Assembly: GCA_951406725.2 (NCBI GenBank)
Contig: OX597833.1
Span: forward strand, 19,964,001-20,028,000
DNA length: 64,000 bases
Source of the DNA: Octopus vulgaris
Lineage: Eukaryota
Direction of reading: 5' to 3'
This document shows, one piece after another, positions 17,935 to 56,339 of this stretch. The notes beneath the pieces were generated by a model. It saw only the letters and a program-made list of their open reading frames with translations, searched no databases and was not told the DNA's origin. Position 1 is the first letter of the stretch. Every line of letters starts with the position of its first letter. A program made the translations under genes and the position numbers.

Positions 17935-18597
17935 CTTGAGAAGACATGTCAAGCTAAGTGAAATTGTGGTTGTGGCCAATGGTGGTGACACAAAAAATGG
18001 CACTCGTACCAGTGATACATAAAAGGTACCAATTTCAGTGACATGTAAAAGGCACCTGTGCCATTATCACATAAAAGGTTCCTGTGCTGGTGACATGTAA
18101 AAGGCACCCATTTCAGTGACATGTAAAAAGCACCTGTGCTGGTGGCATGTAAAAGACACCTGTGTCAGTGACACTTACAAGGCACCTGTGCCGGTGTGAC
18201 ATGTAAAAGATAACCATGCCAGTGACACATAAAAGGTATCTGTGCTGATGACACATAAAAGGGCACCCGTGCCAGGGACATGTAAGAGGCACTCTTGCTG
18301 ATGACACATGAAAGTCATCCATGCCTGTGAAAGATAAAAGGTACCCATGTTGGTGACATGTATAAGGCACTTGTGCCAGTGACACATAAGAGGGCACCTG
18401 TGCAGGTGATATATTGAAGACATCCAGTAGACTCTGTAGAATGGCTGGTATCAAGAAGAGCATCCATCCAGAGAAACCAAGCCAAAACAGACAACTTGAG
18501 CCTGGAACAGCTCTCCGGCTTACTAGCTCTGGTCAAACAATCTAATCCATGCCAGCATGGAAAAATGGACATTAAGTTATGACGATGATGATGATGA
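17935..18597 (+). repeat. RTE 3'UTR-derived element with an expanded ~26-bp minisatellite, inside a pogo-like MITE (about 17728-18760)
   Basis: About 15 units of GTGCCAGTGACA(C/T)(A/G)TAAAAGGCACC at 17990-18410, then the RTE tail and (GAT)n; flanking TIR-like GGCTTATAAGACACAC / GTGTGTCTTTTATGCC. Confidence 0.75.
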
Positions 18598-22285: not shown

Positions 22286-22369
22286 TGGATAGATATATAG
22301 ATATATACACACACAGAGACATATACATATATATATAAACATATGCACAGACATATATATATATATATA

Positions 22370-22841
22370 TTATGGAGATGTACTTGCATAGCAAGTGACC
22401 TGATCTGAGATCATATCCTGAAACAAAAACAATTGCAGCACGGAAGGTGTTTATAAGCCATTTAAAAACACACAAAAACCGTTAGATTTACTTGAACATT
22501 TAAATTCAATTTGTCAAAATATTTTCGTTGCTTTGAAACCACAGCCTGTTCACTGACAAAATTCTGTGCTATATATATATATATTCAAAAACAATTGCAG
22601 CGTGGAAAGGTGTTTATAAGCCATTTAACTTCCATGCTACAGCACAGAATTTTGTCAGTGAACAGGCTGTGGTTTCAAAGCAATGAAAATATTTTGACAA
22701 ATTGAATTTAAATGTTCAAGTAAATCTAACGGTTTTTGTGTGTTTTTAAATGGCTTATAAACACCTTCCGTGCTGCAATTGCTTTTGTTTCAGGATACGA
22801 TCTCAGATCAGGTCACTTGCTATGCAAGTACATCTCCATAA
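22370..22841. repeat. Foldback A: ~200-bp inverted arms with a variant hammerhead motif
   Basis: Arms 22370-22570 and 22641-22841; motif TTTGTCA-GTGAACA-stemII-GAAA-ATAT-TT-TGACAAA at 22651-22701. Confidence 0.9.
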
Positions 22842-22860
22842 TATATATATATATATATAT

Positions 22861-23283
22861 ATAATTAGTGAATGGAAGAAATGGAGTTGAACGAAGATTG
22901 TATAGAATTCCTTTTATTACATTCTACACATGTTTCAAAGGCCACAATTTTCCAAATTCTGATTAAATAAGGATACCATATTGCAGCTTTCTCTTCAGGA
23001 AAAAGCAGGAATTACGTTGATAGAACAAAACAAAACAGAGGCGCAGGTTTAACCATGGGCTCTTAAGGAGCGTCCTCGTTCGAATTGCTTTGCTGCGCCT
23101 CTGCTCTGTTTTGTTTTGTTCTGTCAACGTAATTCCTGCTTTTTCCTGAAGAGAAAGCTGCAATATGGTATCCTTATTTAATCAGAATTTGGAAAATTGT
23201 GGCCTTTGAAACATGTGTAGAATGTAATAAAAGGAATTCTGTACAATCCTCGTTCAACTCCATTTCTTCCATTCACTAATTAT
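22861..23283. repeat. Foldback B: ~185-bp inverted arms with a hammerhead motif; right arm continues as unique sequence to about 23440
   Basis: Arms 22861-23046 and 23093-23283. Confidence 0.9.
23143..23222 (+). ncRNA. Minimal type-I hammerhead ribozyme motif (mirror copy on minus strand about 22922-23000)
   Basis: TTC-CTGAAGA-GAAAGCTGCAAT...ATTGTGGCCTTT-GAAAC-ATGT-GTA^GAA; palindromic ACATGT at stem III. Confidence 0.65.
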
Positions 23284-23436
23284 ATTAAACTTCAATTATC
23301 CGCACCAACGCACGGTTGCAACACCAAATGGTCTTATCTCCAACCGTGTTTTTTTCTGCTGTGATTTTTGCTACCCAGGTATCGGTTAAACTTTTGAATA
23401 ATCTGTAACAAGAAAATTCATCTTTCCATTTCAACA

Positions 23437-23490
<54 letters not shown>

Positions 23491-23614
23491 TGTGCATATG
23501 TTTATATATATATGTATATGTCTGTGTGTGTGTATATATCTATCTATCTATATATATATAATAAAGGTAGCTTGTTCGCAATTTACAACCAGAAGGCAGA
23601 AGTGACATACATGC

Positions 23615-23661
<47 letters not shown>

Positions 23662-23848
23662 TACATGTGTGTGTATTGCATTATCGTAAAGACTCTCAGA
23701 AAACAGCAGATGTGGGGGTGGAAGTGATTCTACAGATATAATAATTGTTCGCTTATTTTCATATTTTCAATAATTCTAAAAGTATACATATTTCAATTCT
23801 TCAAATAAAACTCATGAAAAGCAAAAAAAAGAAAAACAATAAGGGAAA

Positions 23849-23893
<45 letters not shown>

Positions 23894-24907
23894 TACTATC
23901 ACATGAACTGTTATGTTGTTCTATTTTATATGGTAAACTGAACCAGTAGGTGTGAACTAAAATACTCTACATCTACAATTAATTCTATTCATCAGAATAT
24001 GCCTTATTTGCTTCAATGCTGTTATTTTTCTGTTTTCTGTTGTTTTCCCCCCGAAAAGTGATTCACATAAAATTATTCAATCTTCATAAAATTCAGATAT
24101 TCCAGAGCAGATAAATGCTTTAAGTACACCAACGAAAGAATGTCGATTTCTGAATAGTCCACTTTGCATAACAATCTCCAACTGTTAGAAAAGGTGATAC
24201 TATGTTAGGGCGAGGTCAGAACAAGCATTATAGAAACTACTGTATTTCATAACCCAATTCTCACAGATTTTAAGTAGATGATGATGATGATGATGATGAT
24301 TTAACAATAAAAGGTGGGAGATGCAATATTTACATTGCACTAAAACTGGTTAGCCTTTATTCATCAATTATATCATTTTGACCCTCACCAATTTTCAACA
24401 CATTTCACCATTTGCTGAACAAGAGAATTGCTACCATTTCCCTTACTCCAATCTTCTTGCAACACAAAATATAACTAAACTGTCACCAAACATTCTTTTT
24501 GTCTACAAAACTAGTTTCTTTCTCTCATATATATATATATAATCTACTAATTACTTCAGCCCACTGGAGTGATAAAGGTAGAATGAGGTATTTTTCTATT
24601 CTTGTATGTTATATATTTTAATAATTACTGATATCTTTATATATTATATATGTAAAGCATATTTTATATATGTATGTATACTGTTATTATTGTTATAATT
24701 GTCCTTTTAGTAAATAAATAAATAAATTGACATAACATAATATAATGTCTAAAAGTTGATGAATACCACCTATTGATCCCCTCCATTTTCTTATTGCTCT
24801 CTCTCTCTATATATATATATAAATATATACACATACACAAACACACACACGTGTGAGTGGACAATGAAAGAAAGGCACTAAACACATTTAGCGAGAGTTA
24901 CATCTAT

Positions 24908-25224
24908 GGATCAAAACAGTTTGATACAAATTCGTTAGTACTCCGAGTTTCAAGCGTGATGCTAATCTTCAGCCATTTTGAATTTGAATGAAAGAAGTTG
25001 ATTGTTATTACCATAAGGTGGTCAAGAAAAGTCGTGACACCATGTGACCTATCACGACACCACATGACCTTCCTTGACACCATAAGACTGTCTGCAACCA
25101 ATCGCAGCCCACCTTATGGTAATAATAATCAGCTTCTTTCATTCAAATTCAAAATGGCTGAAGATTAGCATCATGCTTGAAACTCTTGGAGTACCAATGA
25201 ATTTGAATCAAACTGTTTTGATCC
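24908..25224. repeat. Foldback C: ~115-bp inverted arms; spacer has three ~21-bp GACACCA..GAC units
   Basis: Arms 24908-25021 and 25109-25224. Confidence 0.9.
25155..25196 (+). ncRNA. Minimal type-I hammerhead ribozyme motif (mirror copy on minus strand about 24932-24972)
   Basis: TGG-CTGAAGA-TTAGCATCATGCTT-GAAACTC-TTG-GAGTA^CCA; stems I, II and III can all be drawn. Confidence 0.7.
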
Positions 25225-26567
25225 TTACATATATGCATATAATATATATTTATATATATATATTGAGAAAGAGAGAGTGCTCTCTACTAGCCCCACCGAC
25301 TTGTGTGTTCCACCCACATATAGCAAAACTCTTCACACACCCTCTCCCAACAAACCAATCTACACCTCTTCCCTTCCTCGCATTTCCTTCTTCATACACT
25401 ATGCCTTCCTCTCACTCCCCAATCTTGTCCTCACAGTTTCAAACACAGCCTAGTTGTTGTTCTTTGCTGAATAAACCAATGTTTAAAGGCATTCCAGCCA
25501 TAACCATCTTGCCTTCTCCAGACAGTTTATCTAGGACTACACAATTCAATGTATCCATCCCTTTTGTTCTTTTACGTAAAGTAGCGTGTAATGAGGGAGA
25601 TTATTTTATTATGTAGGTATGAGATATGGACGACCATGTTGAGGCATCTTCATTGGCTTGAATATATTGAACACATCCGAGTGATGAGAGATAATTTCTA
25701 AATCTGCTGACATCCACATTGACAAGAGCTCTTAACCCTCTTGGGACACCCAGGGCAATTGATCATCCCAAGTGATGCAAGCTGAAAGGATTTTGAGGCT
25801 GGTTCATCGGCCTAATGGAACAAATGTTGTGAATGGTTAGTTATGAAGTGTAATAGTTAATCAGAGATCATCTTTTAGTAGTTGTATCTCAAAAGAAAAA
25901 ACATTTTGGTCGTTTTGGTTACACATACCAAAACACTGCGTGTCTCAAAATGGTTAATCATTCATTTACTAGGGAGTGAGGCATTATTTGGACTCATTTT
26001 CTAGGCTTATATAAGCAGAAGAAAACTAGAAGAAAAACATCTTTGCTAAAGTAATTAATGTCCTGTCACAATACAAAATTGATGATTATATTCGTTTTGT
26101 GCCTAGAATAGCCTAATTTAAACAGAAGAAGAAAATAGTGGCAGATCTTTAAGTATCTCTTTTTTATAAATGACTTTCATAAGGCAAAAAAATACTGCTT
26201 TCTCATCAATTATGAATAGCACACAGTTAAACTAATTATGATGGTTTTTCACCAAGCCGTTTGCAGCAACTTCATCCAAAACAAAACTGATATTACAGCC
26301 ATATATCGGGGACTACTACATCACTGCATTGGTGACAAGTGTAGAGTACAGGTATGTCTCTCATTGGTTTCAGTCATTTAGTAGCCAGCCATATCAACCC
26401 CAGTAATTATTTCAGCTTGCTGCTTATTTTATTAAGATGCCAAGTTTAGGGACATGACATAATCAATAGTACTGGGTTTTTTTTTAGAAGGGGAGTGATG
26501 ACTAAGTGTTATGGTGTTGGTGGGGTAGGAGTACCAGCTTCAAAATCAAAAGTTGACATGGGGTTAA

Positions 26568-26927
26568 ACCTTTAGTGTTTAAACCAGTCATATCCAGCCA
26601 AAATATTCTACCTGTTTTATGTTGAAACTGTCAAGATCCAACCTCTTAACCTATAATGTCATTTTAGAAATATACAATATCACCAGACATATGGGATAAT
26701 ATAGAATTAATTCAAAAAAGATTATATTTGTGTTATATTGCAATACTACACAGTGGTTGTGTAAGCTATGAAATCCTCATCGCTACTGTTATTTCGCACG
26801 TTCGGATGACCTCTACTCAACTCCTCAATGTCTAGACTTCTCGCTCTATATCTACGTATTGGGCTAGCCTACTTCATTGTCTGGGGGTGTCAACACAATT
26901 TGACAGTGTAATCTGAATGCTAAAGGG
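26568..26927. mobile_element. piggyBac-type (TTAA) MITE interrupted by a solo-LTR-like insert
   Basis: TTAA|ACCTTTAGTGTTT ... GAATGCTAAAGGG|TTAA; uninterrupted homolog at 31412-31631. Confidence 0.75.
26731..26897 (-). mobile_element. 167-bp solo-LTR-like element
   Basis: Starts TGT, ends ACA, flanked by a perfect 5-bp direct repeat ATTTG (26726-26730, 26898-26902); absent from the sister MITE. Confidence 0.65.
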
Positions 26928-27044
26928 TTAATCTCCAGCAACATATTGAATACCAGTTGAAGAAGAAAAATTTAGCTTTTCAGAGAAATCTCAAAACATA
27001 AGGAGGAAGTACACAAAAACACATAGCTAAATCAAACAATTATG

Positions 27045-27340
27045 TAAGTTAAGTTAATTATTTGGCTCTAAAAGCAAAAAGCAAGGCCATGTAGGGGGAC
27101 ATGGAGTTATGTACAGGGTGGTGTTCATGCAAAGAGTTCAGGCCATTTGTGGTCAAGGGAGACTTTGAACCGAGCGGTCGTCGGCATCTTCACTATCTCG
27201 TCCGGCAGCTTATTCCACGGATCCGCAACCTGGACGGAGAAAGCCCCTCTCCTTCGATTGAGATGAAATCATCGCAGATAGAGCTTTTCAGAGTGATCCC
27301 GCAGCCGACGCTCTGGAGCAGGAGTGAAGAACACCTCTTT
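27045..27340 (-). mobile_element. CR1 LINE 3' fragment (a second family)
   Basis: Minus frame FFTPAPERRLRDHSEKLYLR*FHLNRRRGAFSVQVADPWNKLPDEIVKMPTTARFKVSLDHKW, a CR1-type C-terminus, then short UTR and (TAACT)n tail. Confidence 0.85.
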
Positions 27341-28134
27341 CAAGAGGTTACACTTTCCGCTTATGATGTTGTGAACAACTGAAAATGATTGCATTTGAAT
27401 GAATTTCTTTCTTTGTTTTTAATCTTGTTTACTTTGTCACTTAGGTGACCAAAAAATAAGTAAAACTCACCAAACATCCCAAAACAAAGCATATTACCAA
27501 CACAGCAACTATTTAACTAGTTGAGAGCAAAGATCATGGTTAGAGGATGGGTTTTTTAGGAATGGTGATTCAGCTGTAAGAATTCCTAAAGCAACAATTC
27601 TAAGATATCTAATTTGACAAAACTAGCTAACACATATTAGCCCTGAGAAAAATAGATACAAAATGTGTTAAGAAAGTTCATTAAGTATTGTTGTCATGAA
27701 ATGTGTTTTTACACCTAGCATATTATTTGATCAGACTTAAAAGATTGTAGTCCACAAAAGAGAATGTTTATGGATTGGTGACATAATTTCTATAACCGTT
27801 CTAGAGTTAGCCTGACTGCCATTCAGTACAAATAATAGCCATACCTTCCAGCCCTACCAAACACTTTTGTTTCTTTATTGTAACATATGTCACCTGATGA
27901 CTGAGAAATATGTTGCTAACAGAAGGAGGTATTCAATAACTCAGGATCCACTACTAACAGCTTAGATATCAACAGCAAATACACCATATCATATGCCTTT
28001 TTTTTTTTATTACACATACACACAAACTAACATGGCTTAGAATTAGTGGTCCTCTGGACATCACTACAGAATACACCAAACTACATTGTTTGATAGTTGC
28101 AGGACCATGAGCAAAGTAAGACTCCCACAATAAT

Positions 28135-28665
28135 CTAGGAATTACAACCGTGTTTCGTGGTCTGCTACCACAACAGCTCCTTTATAGGATCCAGTTAGCT
28201 TAAGACATCATCAGGAGGAACCACGTCCGGTTTCGGCCCCTACTTCTCTACTGTTTTGACGTGGCGGGGCCCCCCCTTTCGGAGGTGTCTTCAGCTCTAG
28301 TGTTGGTAGCATGTCTTCTTTCTTCTTCTTTCTTCTGTTCCCTGGCCTCTTCAATGTATCGTCAGCGAGTGTCAACCAGTGACTGACTGTCTTGTCAAAT
28401 TTTTCCTTTAAATACCTGCCGCATAGGCTCCAACAGGCAGCCCCAGCAAGTTGTCACGTGACACTGTCTCACCTTAACTGACTAGTGAAGGCGCGTAGTT
28501 TTAGCCCGCACTTTTTCTAAACGACTGTCACCTGTCAGTCAGCTTGTCTCACCTAGTGATGTTATTTCCTGTCAGTGTGTTTATGACTTTCAAGCCATTT
28601 TCGGTCTTCCCGCTTCAGCCATATATAGAAGCTGGCTTTTTCGACCGCCTCCTGTACTCTCCTTT
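28135..28665 (-). mobile_element. CpG-rich insertion with tandem hammerhead-like cores (Penelope-like?)
   Basis: Minus strand CTGAAGA...GGCCCC..GGGGCC-GAAAC followed by CTGATGA...GAAAC. Confidence 0.4.
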
Positions 28666-30189
28666 ATATGAATAAATGAAGGAGATAAACTGGCTCCAGG
28701 TAACAAACAGAAGTTTCTTCCACTTCAGCAGGTGTCAGGATCAAACTCTACCAAGTGTTTTCTCCATAATGAAAGCAATACTATCAACTCTATATGAAAG
28801 GAAAGCTATATAAATAGTTAACATACTAACAAAATAAGAATGCAGATAGACTGGCCTAGTTTTCACTGTTACTCACTCAGTCAAGGAAGTTTGTTATGCT
28901 TTGATGGTGATGATGAAAGCCTAGACATTGGTTTACACGGCTTGTTTACTGCTCTCATTTTCGCTTTCTTAACAACAATAATAGTTGGCCAACTAACTAA
29001 TGGAAAAGAATCTGCAGGAGATCTCAGCAGTCTATTGCCGACACCAAAGCAAGATGCAAGATCAGTGTCAATATGCATATATATATATTATTTTGTCAGT
29101 CCAATAGCCCTTGCATAAGCCTGAAGGAAAGCTAATTATAAAGAACAGCAGCCAGTATGTGTGTTTAGTAAAAAAAAAAATACACTAAGTAAACAAAGAC
29201 ATCAAATAACTTATGAAATACTGCATTTACTGATTCACATATTTCTCTCATCAATTCTGGTTGAAGGTGTTAGCAACAGGAAATTCTGTTATTCCTAAAT
29301 TAGTCTTTATGGCAAATGAGCAGAAAATGTTAATAACTTTTCTATGCACTGCTATTTGTGCTTATTATAATACTTTTCATTCAGACATGTTGTTCACCTT
29401 TATATAATACATACAATATTCCTCTGTGAGAGAAAATAAATTTCACCTCCTCACCAGCCAACAGAATCATTATATTTTCATAGGTTTTACATTAGGAAAC
29501 TAATCTTTTATCTCAATATTTTCCCCATTATTAGGTAGTTTAAAAAAAAAAATATTTTTCATCAGCCCCAGGACTCATAAGATCAGTTACCCAGTTTCTA
29601 TTGGTGTATAAACAACCAAGATTACGACATTTTCCAAGATGGGATGCTAGTCTGTTGCTGGGTTGAGGGCCAACAGCTTAGAGGGAAAGAGACAAGCCAA
29701 TTACACTGACTCCAGTACTTGACTGCTACTCTATTCAATCAACCCCAAAATGATGAAAGACAAAGTGAAGCTTAGTGGGATTTGAACTCAGAATGTGAAG
29801 AGCTGCAAAAATAATGTTAAGCATTTTGTCTGATATACTAACAATTCTGCCAGTTTGCTGCTTCATCAAATAATTTAGCCCAGTATTTTTTCAACAGGAC
29901 AGCAATAGTATACAAAGATGGTACCAAGATTTAAATTGCCAGGTTCAAAATGTTAACCCACAACAGTTTTCTTAGAATAAAACAAACTGAAATTGCTCTT
30001 TCTGCTTATGTTTTGAGATTCTCTGAACATCTATAGTTTTCTACATCAATTAATGTTTATAATCATACATTTACTTAGTGATTATCCCATTACTACTTCA
30101 GTGAGTATAGTGAAATCTATGCTTCACTGATGAGGCCATAAACAGACCAAAACATAAGGTCATAAGATACAAATTTCTCCATAGTATCT

Positions 30190-30530
30190 TTCTTTTCTTC
30201 ATTTTACTTGTTTCAGTCATTAAACTGCAGCCATGCTGGGGTACTGCCTCGAAGAATTTTAGCTGAACTAATCAACTGCAGTACTTATTCTATCTGTCTC
30301 TTTTGCCAAATTGCTAAGGTATTAGGACATAAACACACACACACACACACATATATATACAACAAGCTTCTTTCAGTTTCCATCTTCTAAATCTACTCAC
30401 AAGGCTTTGGTCAACCCAAATCTATAAGTAGGAGAAGGCTACTTGCCCAAGGTGACATGCAATGAGAGTGAACCTAGAGCCATGTCGTTGGGAAGCAAAC
30501 TTCTCACCATACAGCCACGCCTGCACCTAG
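30190..30530 (-). mobile_element. SINE-A, diverged
   Basis: Consensus match. Confidence 0.85.
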
Positions 30531-31411
30531 TAGTCAAAATAAATTTCAAAAATATATCAAATTTTTAACTAAAGAGTTAGGGGTTCATACTTTGTCACTG
30601 GCACTATGCTGTGTCATGAGTGGAACCCCACCACCAAAAAAACACTGAACCTTTCTTACCCCTGCTTTCCAAGCAGTCAACCATGTAAAAATATAGAAAG
30701 AATGATTTGGTAATATCTCACAAACCTAATAAGTAGCTTAGGGGTTTATGTGTGCAAGAGTTAATCTTGTCACACAATGCACTGAGGCCAGTACTTTCAG
30801 CAGATTTATTCAGAAATGAGATACTAGCAAAAGGGAAGTGTAAACATGTTTGTAACAAATGTCAAATATTTCATTGAATTTAATATGCACCAAAATATGC
30901 TGGTATTAATTTACTCCATAGCACTGATATTTAAACATTTCAAGGTCTAATGTTATGACATGTTAACCAAATTTTCGGTTCTTACTTCTATGTTTTTTTA
31001 ATTTCTTTTTGTGGCCTAGATAAACAGAGGCAGGGCAACATGCATGACCTTTATTGTGGGGCCTTCAAGAATGGCAAAAGAAAGAGAGGAGCTTACGATA
31101 AGGCCTGAATATTTGCAACAGTGTAAACTCAACTAAAGGTAGCAAAGGATTAGGTGTAGGTACTGAACCAGAAAACAGATTAAGTCTACTCACCAAAGGA
31201 CAAGTATAGTCTATCCAATAGGCTTTTAAACAGTTCCCATCTACCAAATTTCACTCATGAACACTTGGGGTAAACCAAGGCTATAACAGGAAGCACTTGT
31301 CTAAGGTGCCCTCACAATGGAATCAAACCAGTTAATGTTCTGCCCATAGTATCTTGTCAAGATTACCTTATGTTTTATCTGGCTTTACATTATATCTGAT
31401 ACAATTATTAA

Positions 31412-31631
31412 CCCTTTAGTGTTTAAACGGGCCATATCTGGCCCAATTATTCTACATGTTTTATATTTGAACTAGCCATATCTAGCCTCTCACACCTAAC
31501 CTACACTGACATTCTAAAAATAAGTAATCACATTATTGAAACCTCAAAGCTATGAGATAATGCATGATTAATTCAAAACAATTTGAGTGAAAAAGCATTA
31601 CATTTAACAGAGTAATCTGAACATTAAAGGG
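31412..31631. mobile_element. piggyBac-type MITE
   Basis: TTAA|CCCTTTAGTGTTT ... GAACATTAAAGGG|TAAA. Confidence 0.75.
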
Positions 31632-31799
31632 TAAAGGTATTTTATGGCATATAAAGTAGACTTTTTCCACCAAAAAAATTGTCTCATAGATCACCCTTGT
31701 TCCTACATGTGAAGTTGGATCTCCCGTAAGCTTTAATGCAGAAAAAAGCTATTTTTTCCTGAATACAATTAGTCCACATTATTTTGTAAGGAGCACAGG

Positions 31800-31985
31800 G
31801 TCAGTTTCTCTGGTGTGTATATTCTTCCCTAGACAGGACACCGGTCAGTTGCAGAATTACTCGTGTTTATCAGCTGAGTGAACTGGATCAGCATAAAATG
31901 AAATGTTTTGCTCGAGAACATGACACATCAACCAGTCCAGGAATTAAAACCACAATCTCACGATGAGTCCAGTATCTTAAGCTAT
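31800..31985 (-). mobile_element. SINE family C (tRNA-like head), degenerate
   Basis: Shares CAGCTGA(G/A)TG(A/G)ACTG and GAA..AACC(A/C)CAATCT with 57590-57835, which has B box GGTTCGATTCCC on the minus strand. Confidence 0.55.
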
Positions 31986-32004
31986 GTGTCTTTCTTTTCT
32001 TTTA

Positions 32005-32379
32005 TTTCTTTTATTTGTTTCAGTCATTTGACTGCAGCCATGCTGGAGCACCGCCTTTAGTCGAACAAATCAACCCCAGGACTTATTCTTTGTAAGCCTA
32101 GTACTTATTCTATCGGTCTCTTTTTGCCGAACCGCTAAGTTACGTGAACGTGAACACACCAACATCGGTTGTCAAGCGATGGTGGGGAGACAAACACAGA
32201 CACACAAACATACACGATGGGCTTCTTTCTGTTTCTGTCTACCAAATCCACTCACAAGGCTTTGGTCAGCCCAAGGCTATAGTTGAAGACACTTGCTCAA
32301 GGTGCCACGTAGTGGGACTGAACCGGGAACCATGTGGTTGGTAAGCAAGCTACTTACCACACAGCCACTCCTGCGCCTA
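32005..32379 (-). mobile_element. SINE-A, full length
   Basis: A box TGGCTGTGTGG, B box GGTTCAGTCCC, CORE-like ACCTTG(A/G)GCAAGT, tail GCAGTCAAATGACTGAAACAA. Confidence 0.95.
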
Positions 32380-33242
32380 CATTTTCCTGTCTCTACATTT
32401 GTCCTCGAAATGCATTGCTAAAATTGGGGAGCATCTAATATACCCATGCATCTTTTATGCTATCAAATATGGGATAAATAAAATCTTTGGAAAGGAATTG
32501 AATGAAATGAAGTAGAATTATAGAATATGTAAATACACACACACACAGAGGATACTTTTCGATTTCCTTCTCAAAACATTTGAAGAGAACATGTTAATGG
32601 ATTTCTTCAAAGCCTGAAGAATGCTACAGTAAGCAGCCACAGTCTAGAGACAGTTAAATTATATCAAAGGGTGACTTACACTCTAACAGGCTAATTATTA
32701 TATATTGATAGAAACTATATATAAGATAGATCTGAGATTAAGCACAAACGCAGTGAAGCTTCAAGCAGTTTTTAAAATGGAATCAATATTCAACTCTGTC
32801 AAAGAATTTATATTTTTGTGTCAAGTAATACTGTGAAAAAAAAAAAAAAGTAAACCAATCTGCTGATTTTGCAATTGTTTTTTTTTTTCTCACCTTTTTA
32901 TCCTTCTTCTTTATACAGTATTGTGAGAGATTTAAATGTTAACCAAAATAATGCTTAAGATAGTTTTATCCAATTTTTTTTCTTGTCAAGTGTTTGGTCT
33001 ATCTTTATACATTATAGAAGAAATTATCAAAACTTGTTTTGCATAGCTATTTTACTTTTTCGCTTTTATCACAGGTTAGCTTCAAAGAAAGATGCTTTAA
33101 ATGCTAAGTATTCAAGTAAAAATCTTTAATATCACACTTGTTAGAAAACATAGCAGGGAAACAGTAAATTCCCTTCTCTTCATATGCACATTGTTTCTCT
33201 GTTGAGCTTCATGTTAGTCAGAAGTCCTTTCATACAACTCTC

Positions 33243-33449
33243 TCTTTACTCTTTTACTTGTTTCAGTCATTTGACTGCGGCCATGCTGGAGCACCGCCTT
33301 CAGTCGAGCAAATCGACCCCGGGACTTATTCTTTGTAAGCCCAGTACTTATACTATCGGTCTCTTTTGCCGAACCACTAAGTAACGGGGACGTAAACACA
33401 CCAGCATTGGTTGTCACGCAATGCTAGGGGTACAAACACAGCCACACAA

Positions 33450-33482
<33 letters not shown>

Positions 33483-33656
33483 CATATATACGACAGGCTT
33501 CTTTCAGTTTCCGTCTACCAAATCCACTCACAAGGCATTGGTCGGCCCGGGGCTATAGCAGAAGACACTTGCCCAAGATGCCACGCAGTGGGACTGAACC
33601 CGGAACCATGTGGTTGGTTAGCAAGCTACTTACCACACAGCCACTCCTGCGCCTAC
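33243..33656 (-). mobile_element. SINE-A, full length and young
   Basis: As above, CpGs largely intact, (GTAAAAGA)n tail. Confidence 0.95.
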
Positions 33657-34020
33657 AAATAGCTTCTTCCCATAAACTGCTGCTCTCTGGAACTCATTCA
33701 TCTTGTTTTCCTTTGTATTGTGGTATTCACTCCTTTAAGCCCTCTGCCAATCAACATAATTTGAATTTGTAGGCTCCCTTCTTTTCTTTCTTTATTGTCC
33801 CTTACACTATAGTGATCTCAAGTCTTCTTCGGGACATAATCATAAAAAAAAGACATGTGGTAAGAAGCTTGCTTCCCAACCTCATGGTTCTGTGTTCAGT
33901 TCCACTGTGTGGTACCTTGGGCAAGTGTTTTCTACTATTGTCTCAGGCCAACCAAAACCTTATGAGTAGATTCGGTAGATGGAAACTGAAAGAAGCCCAT
34001 CCAACATATGTGCATGTGTG

Positions 34021-34715
34021 TAAAATATCTGGTGGTGTGGGTTATGGTCTAGTCACCCGTATTGTAAATCAGGTGGTTCACAAAGGAGTCATACCCAATG
34101 ACTGGTGTAGCAGCACTATAGTCAACTGTTACAAGGGTAAAGGTGATGCCTTAGAGAGAAATAATTACAGAGGTATCAAATTATTGGGTCAGGTAATGAA
34201 ATTAGGGAGAGAGTTAGCCTAGATGAAATGCAGTTTGCTTTTGTGCCAGGGAGAAGCACCACAGATGCTATATTTCAGGTAAGGCAGCTGCAGGAGAAAT
34301 ACATATCCAAAAATAAACCTCTGTATTTGGCCTTTACTGACTTGGAAAAAGCCTTTGACAGGGTCCCCTGACCCCTTATCTGGTGGTCAATGTGGAAACT
34401 AGGGATAGATGAGTGGTTGGTGAGAGCTGTCTTCATACTCTAATTGCTTTATCTACCAAGGTACTGTCAATTCAAATAGCTGGTCCCTCTGTTGGGTCGA
34501 CATTTGGGCAAACTCTCTCCCACTCCTCCTCTTCATGTAGCAACTTTTCATAGTAGCATCTCCAAGTCTCTCTCTTTGCAGCATCATGATTCTCTCTCGT
34601 ACACTGTCTTGTAATACAAGACACTTCAAGTCTCTGGTCCTCATGATGCAGAACATTGGCAAATTTTTTCTTATCTGCTTCCCCACTGGCTAAGTAAACC
34701 TGTCCCCAGCTTCCC
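34021..34715. mobile_element. Rearranged RTE RT fragment inside SINE-A (33855-34960)
   Basis: Plus 34021-34430: IPNDWCSSTIVNCYKGKGDALERNNYRGIKL, MQFAFVPGRSTTDAIF, LAFTDLEKAFDRVP; minus 34430-34715: the upstream part ...WRCYYEKLL...VDKAIKSMK. Confidence 0.9.
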
Positions 34716-35149
34716 TTCTGGCAATATGACACAGTTGATGGATGGATGGATGGATGGATGTGTCTGTGTTTGATTCCCCCATCACTGCTTGACAACCGGT
34801 GTTGGTGCGTTTGCATCCCTGTAACTTAGTGGTTTGGCAAAAGAGAATAATAGAATAAATACTTGGCTTAAAAGAGAAGCTCTGGGGTCGATTTGTTCAA
34901 CTAAAACCCTTCAAGGCAGTGAACCAGCAAGGCCACAGTCAAATGACTGAAACAAATGAAAAAAAAGAAGAAGAAAAAAAAAGAATCTATAAAATGGTGA
35001 CTAAGTAGCAGGTAATTTAGCATTGACTAGAAAGCTTTGTACTGTTTGTTCCAGCTATCTATGTTCTGAGTTCAAATTCCACGGAAGTCAACTTTGCCTT
35101 TCCTCCTCTTGAGATAGGAAATAAAGTACTTGTCCAGAGCAGTGAACAA

Positions 35150-35400
35150 GCTGAATGGTTAGACCATCAGACAGACTTGCTTGTAGTATCTGTTCCAGCT
35201 GTTTGCATTCTGATGGTGACACCTGCAATGACGCTGGTGTGAAACTCTATGAGCCTTTGCTTTTCTCTCGGACAACATTGGTGATGTGGAGAGGGAAGGC
35301 TTGTCTGCATGAGCAATTGTTGGCCTTTCTATGCTTTGGAGAGAAACTTCCCAAGTGCAAATCCATAGTCTCGTGAGACACATGGAAACCTTGGACAATG
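35150..35400 (-). mobile_element. Highly degraded RTE-like C-terminal fragment
   Basis: Faint ET.DL and WSNH pieces resembling ETWT...RWSGH; heavily frameshifted. Confidence 0.35.
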
Positions 35401-35414
35401 ACATTTCTGAATGC

Positions 35415-35595
35415 ATAGGAAAAAGAGAACATAGATATAAACTATTATGTCTGGGGAGAGTCATTTTCTTTTTGTGCCTTATAATTTAACACACTCACAG
35501 GTAAAATTTCCACTTATTTCTTATTTTCATTTTCATAAAATTATTGTTGCGTCTTGCAACCTTTTCAAAAGGTTGCAAGACGCAATGAAAATTTG
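35415..35595. repeat. Foldback E: perfect 19-bp arms at 35547-35585 capping a pLTR-like relic
   Basis: TTGCGTCTTGCAACCTTTT-C-AAAAGGTTGCAAGACGCAA followed by TGAAAATTT. Confidence 0.7.
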
Positions 35596-36052
35596 GTAAT
35601 GGATGGGACACTAAACACCCTTGTTTGAAAATATATGGATGCAGATAGTGTATCATATAGCCAGCTGGAGACGATGTTTACTGGGGTTAAATAACAGTAA
35701 CAATTGTCCTAACCAGGACTACCACATTATATTGGCAAATAATCTTTACAATATGTAATTCATTTAATTTAAAAGCTATTTGCTTCATTAGTGGATTCTT
35801 CCTCATCAACCCTTTCAATCCAGAGCTCACCAATAAACTGTTTGTTTTCTAGGGTTATTTTTTTTGCCAACCACCATTATTACAACAGACTAAGGTGGCA
35901 AACTGGCAGAATTGTTAGCATACCTTATGAATGGATTTGGTAGACAGAAACTGAAAGAAGCTAGTCATATAGTATCATCATCATCATTTAACATCCATTT
36001 TCCATGCTAGCATGGGTCGGTCTGTATATATATATATATATATATATACTTC

Positions 36053-36207
36053 ATTTAAAAGCAGCAGAAATATAACAAAAGCTGTTACTCAGAGTTTCAT
36101 GTTCCTGCTCGTCAGACAGTTTGTTTTTTTTAATAAAACTGTGTGATGAACAGGAACGTGAAACTCTGAGTAAAAGCTTTTGTTATATATTTCTGCTGCT
36201 TTTAAAT
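36053..36207. repeat. Foldback D: ~70-bp inverted arms, each with a hammerhead motif
   Basis: Minus arm CTGT-CTGACGA-GCAGGAACAT-GAAACTC-T-GAGTA^ACAG (36082-36119); plus arm CTGT-GTGATGA-ACAGGAACGT-GAAACTC-T-GAGTA (36139-36172). Confidence 0.85.
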
Positions 36208-36267
36208 AAAGCATATTACTCTACCTCTGGTATTTGAGTACTCTTTTTCCACCTTGTTTCCCATTTA

Positions 36268-36324
<57 letters not shown>

Positions 36325-38183: not shown

Positions 38184-39909
38184 ATATGTTTGTGTGTGGG
38201 GGGGGTGGGTAGAAAGAGAGAGAACGGAACAGTGGGAAACTGAGATTATTAAAATATTTACTAGTTATAATGATTTTATAATATTATTCAGATAACCAAT
38301 GAAACAGGACCTTTTTTTTTTTTCCTCTTTTGTTTAGGCATAAGCAGGTCTGTGTGATCAAGAAGCTTGCTTTGCTGCCATGTAGTTTTGATTTCAGTCC
38401 CACAGCATGGCACTTTAGTTAAGTGTCTTCTACAATAGTCCTAGGCTGACCAATGCCTATCAATGTATGTATGAGTGTGTTTGATCCACCAAAACCACTA
38501 TCACCACTAGACAAAACTGGTGTTGGTTTGTTTATGTCCTGATACCTAAGTGGTTTCGCAAAAGATACTGATGAAATAAGTACCTAACTTTAGAAAAATA
38601 TGTACTTTTGTTGATTTGTTCAAACCCTTCAAACCCTTCAAAGATGTGCCCCAGCATTGCAGCAGACTAATGACTGAAACTAGTTTTATAAATATATATA
38701 TATGTATGTGTGTGTGTGTGAGTCAGTATGTACACACACACATACATCCTTCCAACTAGGTATACTAAATCATTGATTTCACAAGCTCCTCACACTATTC
38801 TCAATGATATACATAATTAAATCAAAATAAAAGGAGAGTAAAAACAAAAATATAGTCTATGTTAATAATGATAATCTGTCACATAAAAATGGGTTGCATC
38901 ACAGACCACTTAATAGGGGAGCATCAATGTAGAGGTCATTTGAAATATATAACCAAATCACCTTTATACCAGACCCAGCTATGTTAAAATAAAAAAAGGA
39001 CACATTGGATAATGTAGTTATAAATATACTATGTGAAAAAAGGAAATAGGATATGTCATGGATGGATTGCTTTTGATCATATTTATGGTAGGTTGAATTC
39101 TCTCCAAGAAAAAAAAAAAGATATTTTGATTATGTACCAGTATATCTTCTTCACAACAGTAATATTCAAGAAGGGACAGCGCACTGATATATCTTGATAC
39201 TAATATTATAGTTGTTAAAGCCATATTGAAAAATTTTGAGAATTTGGGATGAGGGACATGATTACAGGCCTTTTACAAAAGAAATAGCTGTGTTTAGTTG
39301 TTAGCTTTGTTTTTTAATGATTTTTGCCTTAAACAAAGCTTGAGGTCACACAAGTATAAGGGACTACAAAGGAGGAAAAGAAAGGGCCTAGAGATTCAAG
39401 ATATTGATTGACAAAAAGCTTAAAGGATTAAATATCACAGACCAGCAGCACACAAGACGATGGTGGTGAGTTCCAGAGATCAGCAGTTCAAGGAAAGAAG
39501 CTGTTAGAATAAACAGACTTATGACTAACAGGAAGCTAAACATAGGAACGATGTGCCTCAGAAGCAGGTGACGTTTAAAAGTCTTGACAGAGAGTAGTAG
39601 ACATGAAAGTTTATTAGAACAATGATCATGGAAATACTTAAAAAAGAGATACAATGAAGATACATTTTGATGATGAGCCAAAGACTTAGCAGAAAGAAGA
39701 GGGCCTACTATTTTAACGACTTGATTCTGAATTCAATCAAACAAGTTACAACACTCTGGGGAGGTGCCAGCCCAAAGATGACAGCAATATTCAATAAAAG
39801 GCTGAATAGTAGCCATATAAGTTACTCTCAGGAATAAGAAATTTGAGAGCATGTTTAGTTCTGATCAAGCCAACCTATGGTGAAAGGTGTTCCAGCCATT
39901 CTTCTTCTA

Positions 39910-40325
39910 TACTCTTTTACTTGTTTCAGTGATTTGACTGCGGTCATGCTGGAGCACCGCCTTTATTCAAGCAAATCGACCCCACAACTTATTCTTTGGA
40001 AGCCTAGTGCTTATTCTATTGGTCTCTTTTGCTGAACCGCTAAGTTACGGGGACGTAAACACACCAGCATCGGTTGTCAAGCGATGTTTGGAGGACAAAC
40101 ATAGACACACAAACATATACACACACATACATATATATATACATATATACATATATACATATATATGATGGGCTTCTTTCAATTTCCGTCTACCAAATCC
40201 ACTCACAAGGCTTTGGCTGGCCTGAGGCTATAGTAGAAGACACTTGCCCAAGGTGCCACACAGTGGGAATGAACCCGGAACCATGTGGCTGGTTAGCAAG
40301 CTACTTACCACACAGCCACTCCTGC
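39910..40325 (-). mobile_element. SINE-A, full length
   Basis: Consensus match. Confidence 0.95.
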
Positions 40326-40399
40326 ATTTCTTCAGACATAGAATGTCACCTAATGCATTCTTCCTATTCTAAGATGGTAAAGTATAATTTCTTAGAAGC

Positions 40400-41196: not shown

Positions 41197-41609
41197 ATAG
41201 GCGCAGGAGTGGCTGTGTGGTAAGTAGCTTGCTAACCAACCACATGGTTCCAGGTTCAGTCCCACTGCGTGGCATCTTGGGCAAGTGTCTTCTGCTATAG
41301 CCTTGGGCCGACCAAAGCCTTGTGAGTGAATTTGGTAGACGGAAACTGAAAGAAGCCTGTCGTATATATGTATATATATATATGTGTGTGTGTATATGTT
41401 TGTGTGTCTGTGTTTGTCCCTCTAGCATTACTTGAGAACCGATGCTGGTGTGTTTACGTCCCCGTAACTTAGCGGTTCGGCAAAAGAAACCGATAGAATA
41501 AGTACTGGGCTTACAAAGAATAAGTCCTGGGGTCGATTTGCTTGACTAAAGGTGGTGCTCCAGCATGGTCGCAGTCAAATGACTGAAACAAGTAAAAGAG
41601 TAAAAGAGA
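41197..41609 (+). mobile_element. SINE-A, full length and young
   Basis: ATAGGCGCAGGAGTGGCTGTGTGG...GACTGAAACAAGTAAAAGAGTAAAAGAG. Confidence 0.95.
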
Positions 41610-46314: not shown

Positions 46315-46711
46315 TACTCTTTACTCTTTTACTTGTTTCAGTCATTTGACTGCGGCCATGCTGGAGCACCGCCTTTAATCGAGCAACTCGACCCCAGGAC
46401 TTATTCTTTTGTAAGCCCAGTACTTATTCTATCGGTCACTTTTGCCGAACCGCTAAGTAACGGGGACATAAGCACACCAGCATCGGTTGTCAAGCAATGC
46501 TAGGGGGACAAATACACACACGCACACATATATATATATACACATATACGACGGGCTTCTTTCAGTTTCCATCTACCAAACCCACTCACAAGGCTTTGGT
46601 CGGCCTGAGGCTATAGTAGAAGACACTTGCCCAAGGTGCCAAGCAGTGGGACTGAACCCGGAACCATGTGGTTGGTAAACAAGCTACTTACCACACAGCC
46701 ACTCCTGCGCC
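46315..46711 (-). mobile_element. Young SINE-A nested in an older SINE-A (46225-46835)
   Basis: Older tail at 46225-46305; its body resumes at 46738. Confidence 0.9.
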
Positions 46712-47376
46712 CATTACTTCCTTTTTTTTTTTTTGAAGACTGGTACTTATTTCTCTCAGCCTCTTTTGGTGAACTACTAAGTTACAGGGATGTAAACACA
46801 CCAACACCAGTTGTCAAACAGTGGAGAGACAGGGGAACAAACATATTTCCCTGAAGATCATGACTTTCCCCCAAATGTTCAAGTTGGACAACAAGCATAT
46901 CGATCTCACCAATTTAGTAGAACCTCTGCAAAGATCATGTGCACTGCCTCTCTTCCTTATAAGAGAAGTGATACAGAAGATAGGACAGGGCGAGTGGGAA
47001 GGCAAGTAAATTCACAAGAATGTGAAAGGAGTATGGAACATAAAAAGCGATGGAAACAAAGAGGAATGCAGGTATGTCTGTGTGGTAAGAAGCTTGCTTC
47101 CCAACCACAAGGTTCCAAATTCTGTCCCGCTGCGTGGAACTTTGGGCAAGTGTCTTCTACTATAGACTTGGACCGACCAAAGCTTTGTGAGTGGATTTAG
47201 TAGATGGAAACCGAAAGAAGCCTGTTGTGTGTGTGTGTGTGCATGCATTTTTGTGTCTGTGCTTGTCACCCCCACCCACCTGCTTGGTTTGTTTACATCT
47301 CTGTAACCTAGCAGTTCAGCAAAAAGAAACTGATAGTGTAAGTACCGGGCTTAAAAAAAATTAAGTTTATCAAGGT

Positions 47377-47780
47377 ATAGGCGCAGGAGTGGCTACATGG
47401 TAAGTAGTTTGCTAACCAACCACATGGTTCCGGGTTCAGTCCCACTGCGTGGCACCTTCTGCAAGTGTCTTCTGCTATAGCCTCGGGCCGACCAAAGCCT
47501 TGTGAGTGGATTTGGTAGACGGAGACTGAAAGAAGCCTGTCGTATATATATGTATGTATGTGTGTGTATATATTTGTGTGTCTGTGTTTGTCCCCCTAGC
47601 ATTGCTTGACAACCGATGCTGGTGTGTTTACGTCCCCGTTACTTAGCGGTTCGGCAAAAGAGACCGATAGAATAAGTACTGGGCTTACAAAGAATAAGTC
47701 CCGGGGTTGATTTGCTCGACTAAAGGTGGTGCTCCAGCATGACCGCAGTCAAATGACCGAAACAAGTAAAAGAGTAAAGA
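47377..47780 (+). mobile_element. Young SINE-A nested in an older SINE-A (47065-47835)
   Basis: Older head and body 47065-47355, tail 47783-47835. Confidence 0.9.
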
Positions 47781-48972
47781 GTGTCCCAGCATGGTCGCAG
47801 TCGAACAACTGAAACAGATAAGATAAAAAGATAAAAGCATTCTGAAGGGTTACAAATATATCCTAACTCCTTAAGAGTTTGCAGAAAGGATGTTTGAAGA
47901 GTGATTAACAAATATTTAAATGATCTTAGACTTAAGAGTTTTATTTACATATCAAAATCAGACTTCGAGTAGAGGCTTTGTTATAAATGTGGTCGCGAAA
48001 GGCAATCAAAGGACTTTGACAAAACTAATTGATTGGTTGACTGACATGAATGATTATCAAACAATTGATTAGTCAATCGGTTAAGTAGTGAACCAATTGA
48101 CAGAGAAATAATAAAGAAGTGAAACAGAACCAGAGCGTGTGTTTATTATGATAACACAACATAAATATATAGATCTTATTTCAGTCAGTCAAGGACCACA
48201 GTAACAAATTTCAGCTTGGTGCTCAATCAATGGAAACAGATTTAAATTCAAATAATTTTAGAGATATTCTACCTGGTTGTTGCTTATCCCTGAGTCAGTC
48301 CCCCATTGATCAAGTTTAGGATGAAAGATTTTGCAGCCATGATCATCACATGGTTTTTTTTCTTCAGGCATAGTGTGTCTCTAAGACTATACTGTTCAGC
48401 ATATCCTTTCTTCATTTTAAGATCGTAGGAAATGATTTAGCTGTTAGTTCTAGCAGGCCATGCGACCACATGAAAGCTTCTTCATTCGTTTGTACTTAGT
48501 TTTATCAAGATAAAAGTTGAAAAACTAAAACCAACACATCATATTTTTTACAAATACTAAAACATGCACACATTGTTTTCTTTTTAAAATTAGCAAAAAG
48601 ACAAATATATTACTTTAATAAAATAATATTACTCTAATAGCTTTCTTTTAACCCTTTCACTCATGTTAAATTACTCTTCACTTATATCTGACGGAATGCA
48701 GGTTGTTTGTTACCAGCTGCTGCCGCCTGAACAGAAAACACCCCTTCTCCCTCGTGGCTTGTTTATGTAACAACATAACATTCCACATTTAAATGGAACA
48801 GACTTGTTACGACTGTTAACAAACATCAGAAACACTTTTAATGCTCTCTATCTTTATTACGGGTCAAGACACCATGTATTTTGTGTTATTGTTTAGCCCA
48901 ATGTCAGCCTTGGTTCACTGGCCATACGGTCAAAGGCGTTCAAGTAGCATGAACTTCCATTTATTTTTATTA

Positions 48973-54015: not shown

Positions 54016-55295
54016 TCATCATCATCATCATCGTCGTTTAGCATCCGTTTTCCATGCTAGCATGGGTTGGACGGTTCTACTGGGGTCTGTGAAGCCAGAA
54101 GGCTTCATCAGGCCCAGTCAAATCTGGCAGTGTTTCTACGGCTGGATGCCCTTCCTAACGCCAACCACTCCGTGAGTGTAGTGGGTGCTTTTTACGTGCC
54201 ACCCGCACAGGTGCCAGACAGAGCTGGCAAACGGCCACGAACGGATGGTGCTTTTTATGTGCCACCGGCACAAGGGCCAGGCGAGGCTGGCAACGGACAT
54301 GAAACGGGGCGGTGCTGGCAACGGTCACGAAACGGAAGGTTCTCTTACATGCCACCGGCACTGGTAACACATCTGCAATTTCCATTGATCGATTTCCATT
54401 CTGATCCTCACTTGCCTCAACGGGTCTTCACAAGTAGAGTTTCTTCATGCCACCGGCACTGGTAACACATCTGCAATTTCCATTGATCGATTTCCATTCT
54501 GATCCTCACTTGCCTCAACGGGTCTACACAAGTAGAGTTTCGACATGCCACCGGCACTGGTAACACATCTGCAATTTCCATTGATCGATTTCGATTCTGA
54601 TCCTCACTTGCCTCAACAGGTCTTCACAAGTAGAGTTTTGTGTCCCAAGAAGGGAAGGTATGCATACTTAGGCTGGCTCCATCCCATGTAGAAGGCCACG
54701 GGTTATGGACTCACTTGTCCTGCCGGGTCTTCTCGCGCACAGCACACTTCCAGAGGACTCGGTCTCTAGTCATTTCCTCAGTGAGACCTAAAGTTCGAAG
54801 GTCGTGCTTCACCACCTCGTCCCAGGTTTTCCTGGGTCTGCCTCTTCCACAGGTTCCCTCAACCGCTAGGGTGTGGCACTTTTTCACACAACTATCTTCA
54901 TCCATTCTCGCCACATGACCATACCAGCGCAATCGTCTCTCTTGCACACCACAACTGATGCTTCTTAGGTCCAGCTTTTCTCTCAAGGTACTTACACTCT
55001 GTTGATTATGAACACTGACATTACACATCCATCGGAGCATACTGGCTTCATTTCTTGCAAGCTTACGCATATCCTCAGCAGTCACAGCCCATGTTTCACT
55101 GCCATGTAGCATGGCTGTTCGTACACACGCATCATACAGTCTGCCTTTCACTCTGTGCGAGAGGCCTTTTGTCACCAGCAGAGGTAAGAGCTCTCTGAAC
55201 TTTGCCCAAGCTATTCTTACTCTAGCAGTTACACTTTCAGCACACCCGCCCCCGCTACTGACTTGGTCACCTAGGTAACGGAAACTATCAACTAT
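54013..55295 (-). mobile_element. Young 5'-truncated RTE LINE: open C-terminal ORF (55295-54711), ~700-nt 3'UTR, (GAT)n tail; sits in the microsatellite of a SINE-A (53813-55470)
   Basis: VDSFRYLGD...RVRIAWAKFRELLPLL...KGRLYDACVRTAMLHGSETW...RRLRWYGHVARM...GRGRPRKTW, no stops over about 190 codons. Confidence 0.95.
54348..54638. repeat. Three tandem 98-bp units in the RTE 3'UTR
   Basis: CATGCCACCGGCACTGGTAACAC...AGTAGAGTTT starting at 54348, 54446, 54544. Confidence 0.95.
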
Positions 55296-56339
55296 AAATA
55301 TATATATATATACGATGATGATGATGATGTATATAGTGTGTTTGTTCCTCCTACATTGCTTGACAACTAGTATTGGTTTGTTTACATTCCCATAACTCAG
55401 CAGTTCAAGCAAAGAGCTCAATAGAATAAGTACCAGACTTAAAAAAAAAAAAAATATCAAGTACTGAGTTCAGTTTTGTAAAAAGTAAAGAAAAAAAAGT
55501 AAAAGGTGACCCAGTTCTGATTCTGACCTCTAGCTATTTCCCTTATTTTCTTTCTTTCATTAGAACTCCTGTTTCCACCTTGCCCTTCTCAAAATCAATA
55601 AAACTAACTCATCCATTGCTAAATGGCTCTGATTATGAGACAAAGAAATCAAACAATTCACACAGGCAATGGGGTAAATAAATACTGCTTGATCGATCGA
55701 TGCCCCCCCCCTAATTCACGCCATTCAACCATGAAGTACAAGTACCTTTTATAAACATGTAAAGTGAGATCATTAAGCAACTGTCTTCGTTTACCGAGCT
55801 AACGAATACAAAAATACATATTAGATTAGTTTAATTGGCAAATGTAAAAAATCACAAGCAATGCAATGAATATCTTTTTTTCATTCTTCTACTGGTTTCA
55901 GTCTATGAACTCTGGCCATGCTGGGGCATCACTTACAAGGGTTTTAGTGCTGGATAGTTTTTTTTTCTCTCTTGCTTATTTTATCTTGTAAAAGATGAAG
56001 TAGCCAAGTTCACTTTGATGGAAAGGTATATATGCCAAGTTAGGCTAAATAATATAAATATAGATAATATAAACATATAATTTCTCTCTCTCTCTCCATC
56101 ATCATCATCATCGTTTAACGTCCGTTTTCCGCGCTAGCACGGGTTGGACGGTTTCGACCGGGGTCTGGGGAGCTCGGGACTGCCCCAGGCTCCAATCTAG
56201 TCTGGCAGTGTTTCTACAGCTGGATGCCCTTCCTAACGCCAACCACTCCGCGAGTGTAGTGGGTGTTTTTTACGTGCCACCTGCACAGGTGCCAGAGGGG
56301 TCTGGCAACGGCCACGTTCGGATGGTGCTTTTTATGTGG

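Follow-up and report, generated by a model that had tools for sequence, protein, structure and literature searches.

Five palindromes lie within a 64,000-nucleotide stretch of the Octopus vulgaris genome (contig OX597833.1, positions 19,964,001 to 20,028,000; the whole stretch is referred to below as the window) and are labelled here A (22370-22841), B (22861-23283), C (24908-25224), D (35547-35585) and E (36053-36207). Comparison of their arms with copies elsewhere in the genome suggests that each palindrome probably consists of two 5′-truncated ends of an endonuclease-bearing Penelope-like element (PLE) joined head to head, likely in a single insertion, and that it is an insertion product and not a mobile unit. 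Judged from their sequence, the arms are the pseudo-long terminal repeat (pLTR) ends of PLE families that code for an open reading frame (ORF), and the hammerhead ribozyme motifs within them are passengers of the pLTR. An earlier sequence-only reading of the window had reported the five palindromes, all of which were confirmed, and had assigned an outward-facing type I hammerhead to both arms of four of them (A, B, C and E) and a truncated version to D, which the motif coordinates bear out.

In genome searches each arm drew about 700-2800 first-look candidates; 40 of these per arm were scored and 30 retrieved. All the arms are members of multi-copy families whose copies have fixed 3′ ends and variable 5′ ends, many of them standing alone. 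[quoted passage not shown] The suggested link to Penelope was upheld by the presence of a PLE-type ORF upstream of the arm in longer copies of every family. In family A, an endonuclease (EN) lies 0.9-1.4 kb upstream of the arm in 24/30 loci (one being the query's own locus), and the copy L434 contains a 1025-aa open frame with reverse transcriptase (RT) motifs and a Pfam GIY-YIG match. When family B was approached from an upstream endonuclease-like peptide, 29 of 30 loci carried a same-strand arm about 0.55-0.6 kb downstream of it; one of its copies (L391) comprises an inverted tailed arm, a 661-aa RT-EN frame and an untailed arm, and an 85%-identical relative (L401) comprises a pLTR, an 899-aa frame with RT and EN motifs, and a second pLTR, the only tandem pLTR-ORF-pLTR layout seen. 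The identity of the B ORFs rests on motifs, on a weak BLASTP match (E 2e-4) to a Pfam-confirmed RT plus GIY-YIG protein, and on Atlas neighbours that include GIY-YIG and RVT_1 clusters. Both B ORFs (L391:4022-6004 and L401:2706-5402) also show a long Asn/Ser-rich stretch between the RT thumb and the endonuclease, which recalls the N-rich inserts of rotifer Penelope elements (PMC3846280). In family D a homologous ORF end is found upstream in 9/30 long copies, with a GIY-YIG domain above the Pfam cut-off in L362, and families C and E, which are older, retain only colinear decayed endonuclease remnants (C 2/30, E 2-3/30 loci). RT-bearing frames were seen for families A and B. The A and D arms hold the start of similar reading frames that continue through the tail, as in Pen2a_Av (PMC3846280), and the ORFs of both carry a CX3-4CX2C linker resembling that described for Neptune and Nematis (PMC8557442).

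Some apparent linkages were set aside. The locus L043/L403 was dropped as a parent of A owing to poor alignment with the A-linked endonuclease and the lack of colinear sequence with other A copies; its 784-aa open frame with Pfam RVT_1 and GIY-YIG matches (L403:2672-5023, +) belongs to a further PLE family that is a chance neighbour of an A arm. PLE matches at L004 (C) and L237 (E) were likewise excluded as non-colinear neighbours. A variant of A whose arm continues, after arm position 156, into internal A ORF sequence occurs at L335, L337-L340, L343 and L359, several of these near contig ends; they represent one segmental duplication and were counted as one event.

The anatomy of the insertions carries most of the argument. 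Among 147 inverted pairs of families A, B, D and E, 120 combined an arm bearing an outer tail with a short, untailed arm, three had two tails, none had two short ends and 24 were unclassifiable, so that one tailed and one untailed end were present in 120/123 classifiable pairs. The three exceptions are the compound A of the window and one duplicated D locus counted twice. Since the A and D queries were partly selected for the tail, the tail-free B and E queries are of particular weight, and with these all 53 of 53 classifiable pairs were of the tailed-plus-short type. Non-simple direct repeats of at least 11 nt were present at both outer ends in 17/28 (A) and 23/39 (D) cases, compared with cross-paired nulls of 1.3 and 0.8. 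B and E were mostly inserted in (TA)n; the (TA)n setting earlier claimed for most of the palindromes does not extend to D, which has no (TA)n next to it. Two fixed sites account for the outer ends, each arm using one of them, and the inner ends vary independently: in B pairs the tailed arm reached further inward in 11 cases and the untailed arm in 14, with three ties. Spacers ranged from 0 to over 3 kb, junctions varied among loci and solo arms were common in all families; the recurrence of one arm-plus-spacer unit at many loci, which had been suggested as a check, was not found. Arm divergence was lower within pairs than between loci (B 0.54 vs 2.72%, D 6.3 vs 8.5%, A 7.0 vs 8.6%, E 7.2 vs 8.3%), which is compatible with a shared template.

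A coupled, two-strand mechanism would account for this arrangement. The element protein would nick an AT-rich or (TA)n target on both strands; one strand would prime at a distal internal start to give the tailed arm and the other at a proximal start to give the untailed arm. Both cDNAs would be templated by sense element RNA, probably the same molecule, and their synthesis would pass back across the hammerhead and either end prematurely or continue off the RNA 5′ end, before the two were end-joined. Under two-strand priming the 3′ ends of the element, and hence the ribozymes, would always face outward. That the two starts are coupled, one serving each arm of an insertion, is suggested by the 120/123 tail asymmetry. 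The same PLE origin may instead be combined with an inverted arm made by fold-back self-priming, a template jump or an antisense template, the untailed end being cut by the endonuclease at resolution. Self-priming on an antisense template and an origin of the tail from EN-mediated resolution have both been proposed (PMC3846280 and PMC8557442, respectively), and the near identity of arms in young B pairs would fit, as would junctions that are self-complementary, among them the TTAA at the centre of many E pairs. A fold-back copy, however, can neither bear a tail missing from its template nor extend further 5′ than the template, yet the untailed arm is the longer in half of the 28 B pairs, and at L184 both arms reach the fixed 5′ stop described below. 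That either arm may be longer argues against simple fold-back copying, and this route is considered unlikely overall; variants with a template switch or endonuclease trimming are possible.

Families A and D share a further feature, a fixed 5′ stop: in 58/60 A arms and 32/34 D arms the 5′ end lies no further upstream than one base, situated 10-12 nt before the stem I anchors. In sets retrieved with the 3′ part only, 0/39 A and 2/46 D copies passed this base; targeted searches found many longer copies. A TATAWA motif lies at -30 from the stop base in 28/30 long A copies, and RGWYV at +28 in 20/27 long D copies. These spacings were read against the canonical positions and consensus of promoter motifs. 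With some reserve, the stop is taken to be a transcription start; a stop at one base with promoter-like spacing would suggest a sense, uncleaved RNA template. Initiator (Inr) plus downstream promoter element (DPE) have been described for Drosophila Penelope (PMC2377424), and TATA plus Inr for a rotifer pLTR (PMC3846280). For A and D, the usual template would likely be the 5′ leader of the transcript, giving units of about 200 nt. An end cluster in family E that resembled a fixed 5′ stop was discarded, being explained by a self-complementary TTAA and query bias. Contigs from four presumed-RNA runs contained no informative splice joint at the A stop, and contigs cannot show ends. No RNA run was listed as containing the window stretch, a result that speaks neither for nor against transcription.

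The same stop admits another explanation, namely that A and D have spawned ~200-nt non-autonomous units with an internal promoter, transcribed from short copies and moved in trans, with the palindrome rebuilt at each insertion. Non-LTR retrozymes have been proposed as non-autonomous PLE derivatives (10.64898/2026.07.22.740005), short copies dominate the A and D sets, and the DPE-like motif lies inside the D unit. The 5′ leader of a full-length mRNA, on the other hand, predicts the same short product, the same subfamily also includes long copies (L035, L036, L201, L210), and copy ends did not pile up at the predicted ribozyme cut site (A 2/39 within 2 nt, D 1/46). Nor were tandem retrozyme arrays seen: among 30 A loci, head-to-tail units occurred only at L060 (G000:C30:16935110-16935843), where four A arms stand head to tail at ~240-nt spacing with (TA)n between them, and otherwise all families showed solo arms and inverted pairs. 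Such mini-elements are judged quite improbable as the principal explanation, and can coexist with coupled two-strand priming. A fuller scheme can also be drawn, in which one capped, sense, uncleaved RNA would be primed twice at set sites and run off at its start, the D promoter would lie inside the ribozyme, the 200-nt units would be transcribed and remobilised as mini-elements resembling short interspersed elements, and the U3-A8 (in A, G3-C8) hammerheads would still cleave as dimers; this is held to be improbable.

Several observations weigh against the reading of the palindromes as coupled insertion products and of the stop as a transcription start. The loci analysed are top-scoring matches and not random copies, and the B-family ORFs, compared with the local Pfam library, matched neither RT nor GIY-YIG. 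The C pairs were judged by inspection only, the C reference having no tail. Target duplication was weak in B (4/29), whose targets are (TA)n, and was seen in 1/24 E cases against a null of 1.8, with an E reference that ended ~9 nt short of the tail end. The similarity of arms within pairs is also compatible with gene conversion or subfamily structure. B, C and E have no fixed 5′ stop; the base at which A arms stop also looks like a textbook splice acceptor, and in D a further RGWYV match occurs at +21. An additional G, which in LINE-1 betrays a copied cap (PMC11702581), stood before the stop in 11/17 arms in the raw count, and in 6/12 (p about 0.03) after five ambiguous junctions, at which the G could derive from the other arm or the flank, had been removed by eye; the D cases are all AG repeats and may be slippage products.

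The hammerhead motifs themselves occur in all five families, with a type I core including the 3-8 pair, stems I-III and a UH triplet. A strict descriptor permitting the 3-8 pairs C-G, U-A and G-C was applied to a sample of 600 kb taken at positions chosen blind from 30 contigs (L271-L330), where it gave 20 matches compared with 1, 0 and 0 in three dinucleotide shuffles, well above chance; in the window it gave one match, against a mean of 0.07 over 30 shuffles. The outward polarity also recurred: the relaxed motif faced outward in 6/13 abutting palindromes of the blind sample and inward in 0/13, and over all 104 inverted pairs of that sample it was outward in 9, inward in 3, both in 1 and absent from 91. 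Family cores are conserved. In a tally anchored outside the core (80 anchored copies for A, 69 for D and 67 for E, gapped copies or those less than 70% like the yardstick being dropped), the 3-8 pair was G-C in 41/57 family A, T-A in 34/38 family D and C-G in 47/57 family E copies. Decay is widespread in the window, where 1/10 arms passed the strict descriptor, the B arms matching their family with a bulged stem II and the A, D and E arms showing decayed stems or cores. In single-strand minimum free energy folding none of seven window arms reached a significant z-score; only L038, a better-preserved copy from the families, did so (z -2.3). In Rfam, no hammerhead family was found among the best 150 of 351 matches, and six family loci gave no match at the gathering score; Rfam miRNA matches were rejected as hairpin and microsatellite noise. 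PDB sequence searches returned nothing relevant. The blind sample also contained at least five further hammerhead families absent from the window (e.g. L278, L293, L297, L306, L310, L311 and L326), of which at least two have U3-A8 cores, and one C3-G8 family was met six times in the 600 kb.

In a transcript reading through a whole palindrome, the hammerhead segment of A, B, C and E is predicted to be 92-100% base-paired with the opposite arm, and its release from the hairpin to cost 53-160 kcal/mol. The competition between ribozyme fold and hairpin that had been postulated is thus found in prediction, where it would go fully to the hairpin. It had formed part of a proposal that the palindromes are ORF-less foldback retroposons moving as whole units, in which ribozyme folding would contend with an ADAR-edited hairpin. 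Beyond the dominance of the hairpin, the likeness in size of many D and A palindromes (about 290-360 nt) speaks for it, but this similarity follows from the fixed 5′ stop. The proposal was not supported by comparison with the copies, being opposed by copy-specific junctions, by spacers of over 3 kb that include ORF sequence, by the frequency of solo arms, by the decay of most window arms and by the PLE-type ORF linked to every family; of the 20 strict hammerheads in the blind sample, 17 lay outside any inverted pair and three inside one, all outward. Variable junctions and spacers and asymmetric ends likewise differ from the fixed internal structure with symmetric terminal repeats that marks foldback elements and miniature inverted-repeat transposable elements. 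The proposal is accordingly regarded as very improbable.

The elements of the window are listed in Table 1. The elements extend beyond the palindrome limits given earlier: the tails of B, C and E reach 23436, about 24852 and 36272, respectively, the left arm of D reaches 35442, and A is a compound of one typical insertion (22586-22841) and an extra mirror copy that includes ~80 nt of flank. The typical insertion sits between (TA)n runs, a layout repeated at L251, L253 and L255. The flank at 22289-22370 is mirrored at 23470-23551, past element B, with 97.6% identity over 82 nt, and B, a young family with copies 98-99% identical, is inserted in (TA)n between the A arm and this mirrored flank. 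The outer left A arm is likely a later DNA-level inverted duplication; because the flank is mirrored beyond B, the A palindrome would have been enlarged by inverted duplication before B inserted in its (TA)n. Extending such post-insertion duplication, or assembly artefact, to the palindromes at large is scarcely credible despite this example, as target duplications enclose whole pairs, the two ends differ by the tail, and the C centre is present in independent DNA contigs. Single-copy-depth contigs of run X2 cover that centre (24992-25156) with 0 differences, and those of run X1, possibly the source sample, cover part of the A centre (22596-22698) with 1 difference; for these two, the only checkable centres, an artefact is unlikely, and the earlier assumption of genuine palindromes holds to that extent.

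Table 1. Arms, insertions and hammerhead motifs of the five elements in the window.
Family	Feature	Position	Strand	Remarks
A	Typical insertion	22586-22841		Inverted untailed 43-nt piece 22586-22628 (-) and full tailed arm 22638-22841 (+)
A	Minimal type I hammerhead	22658-22694	+	G3-C8 core; palindromic stem III; stem II decayed in the window copy
A	Extra inverted duplicate of the arm	22289-22573	-	Arm 22370-22573 plus flank; arm 98% to right arm; hammerhead 22553-22517
B	Untailed arm	22859-23045	-	Hammerhead 22998-22925; C3-G8 core; predicted GUA cut
B	Tailed arm	23047-23436	+	Hammerhead 23146-23219; tail of 150 nt, 23287-23436
C	Tailed arm	24852-25021	-	Tail about 24852-24907; hammerhead 24972-24939
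C	Untailed arm	25072-25226	+	Hammerhead 25158-25193, intact; sole window arm passing the strict descriptor
D	Untailed arm	35442-35574	-	U3-A8 core kept; GAAA box disrupted; 5′ strand of stem I missing
D	Second arm	35558-35594	+	Overlaps first arm at centre; core broken; 3′ part and tail lost
E	Untailed arm	36044-36123	-	Hammerhead 36115-36086; stem II decayed
E	Tailed arm	36130-36272	+	Hammerhead 36143-36172; C3 to G breaks the 3-8 pair; tail 36217-36272

The remainder of the window is rich in other repeats. A very abundant repeat of ~400 nt occurs in both orientations between 16870 and 64000 (e.g. 33239-33655, 39900-40326, 41198-41609, 46316-46804, 47378-47781 and 59509-59913) and, through copies that are neighbours by chance and lack hammerheads, makes up most of the remaining inverted pairs of the window and, it seems, of the blind sample. 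Stop-broken frame fragments of a LINE-type reverse transcriptase lie at 1314-3176 (-), 33773-34825 and 54711-55469 (-), and a tandem repeat with a period of about 53 nt and copies 72-76% identical spans 17985-18532. No host gene was recognised among the stop-to-stop frames of at least 110 aa in the window.

The head-to-head arrangement of pLTR and tail has already been published, and the elements of the window add families of a known type. An inverted truncated copy, a one-sided tail and a (TA)n bias have been reported for PLEs (PMC8557442), and inverted architecture also in PMC3846280, PMC2377424 and PMC8969392. Like insertions of endonuclease-bearing (EN+) PLEs (PMC8557442; Pen2a_Av, PMC3846280; D. 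virilis Penelope, PMC2377424), the window elements possess head-to-head pLTR ends and a one-sided tail, and they further share a target duplication round the unit (in A and D), (TA)n or AT-rich targets, and an ORF with RT and C-terminal GIY-YIG in long copies. They differ in that the partners in the window are cut to 40-390 nt, hence the lack of an ORF, that the tails measure ~55-65 nt (A, C, D, E) or 150 nt (B) compared with the 30-40 nt described for EN+ PLEs, and that the arms of A and D share a fixed 5′ limit. For Anolis PAc in vitro, both strands were nicked and extended, two internal RT starts bound the tail, and the RNA template was uncleaved (PMC11167929); these starts and this template match the two fixed outer ends and the intact hammerheads of the copies, although that work, in the text available, does not assign the two starts to separate arms within a single insertion. 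The hammerheads of Schistosoma PLEs have U3-A8, occur as opposite-strand pairs 100-700 bp apart and show low activity in vitro (PMC4209133), and the G3-C8 core of family A differs from the minimal type I hammerheads of metazoan PLE pLTRs described in the same source. In a literature search that excluded PMC5785218 and supplements, G3-C8 was met only as a laboratory partial-rescue mutant, in the available part of PMC11167929. Metazoan non-LTR retrozymes are similar in being short non-coding units with a type I hammerhead and kinship to PLE pLTRs, but they form head-to-tail tandem arrays, whereas the window families form head-to-head pairs or solo arms with ORF-linked parents (10.64898/2026.07.22.740005).

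The occurrence of three distinct 3-8 pairs (C-G, U-A and G-C) in one genome points to selection on the catalytic fold, and it implies that standard CUGANGA searches overlook whole families. Extrapolated from the 20 strict hammerheads per 600 kb, roughly 60,000-140,000 may be present across the 2.8-Gb genome. Together, these copies provide a natural data set on an open question, the origin of the tandem and inverted structures of PLEs and the use of a sense or an antisense template (PMC3846280, PMC8557442). The tail asymmetry, the independent inner ends and the promoter-spaced stop favour coupled two-strand priming on sense RNA, and would supply predictions for the in vitro system.

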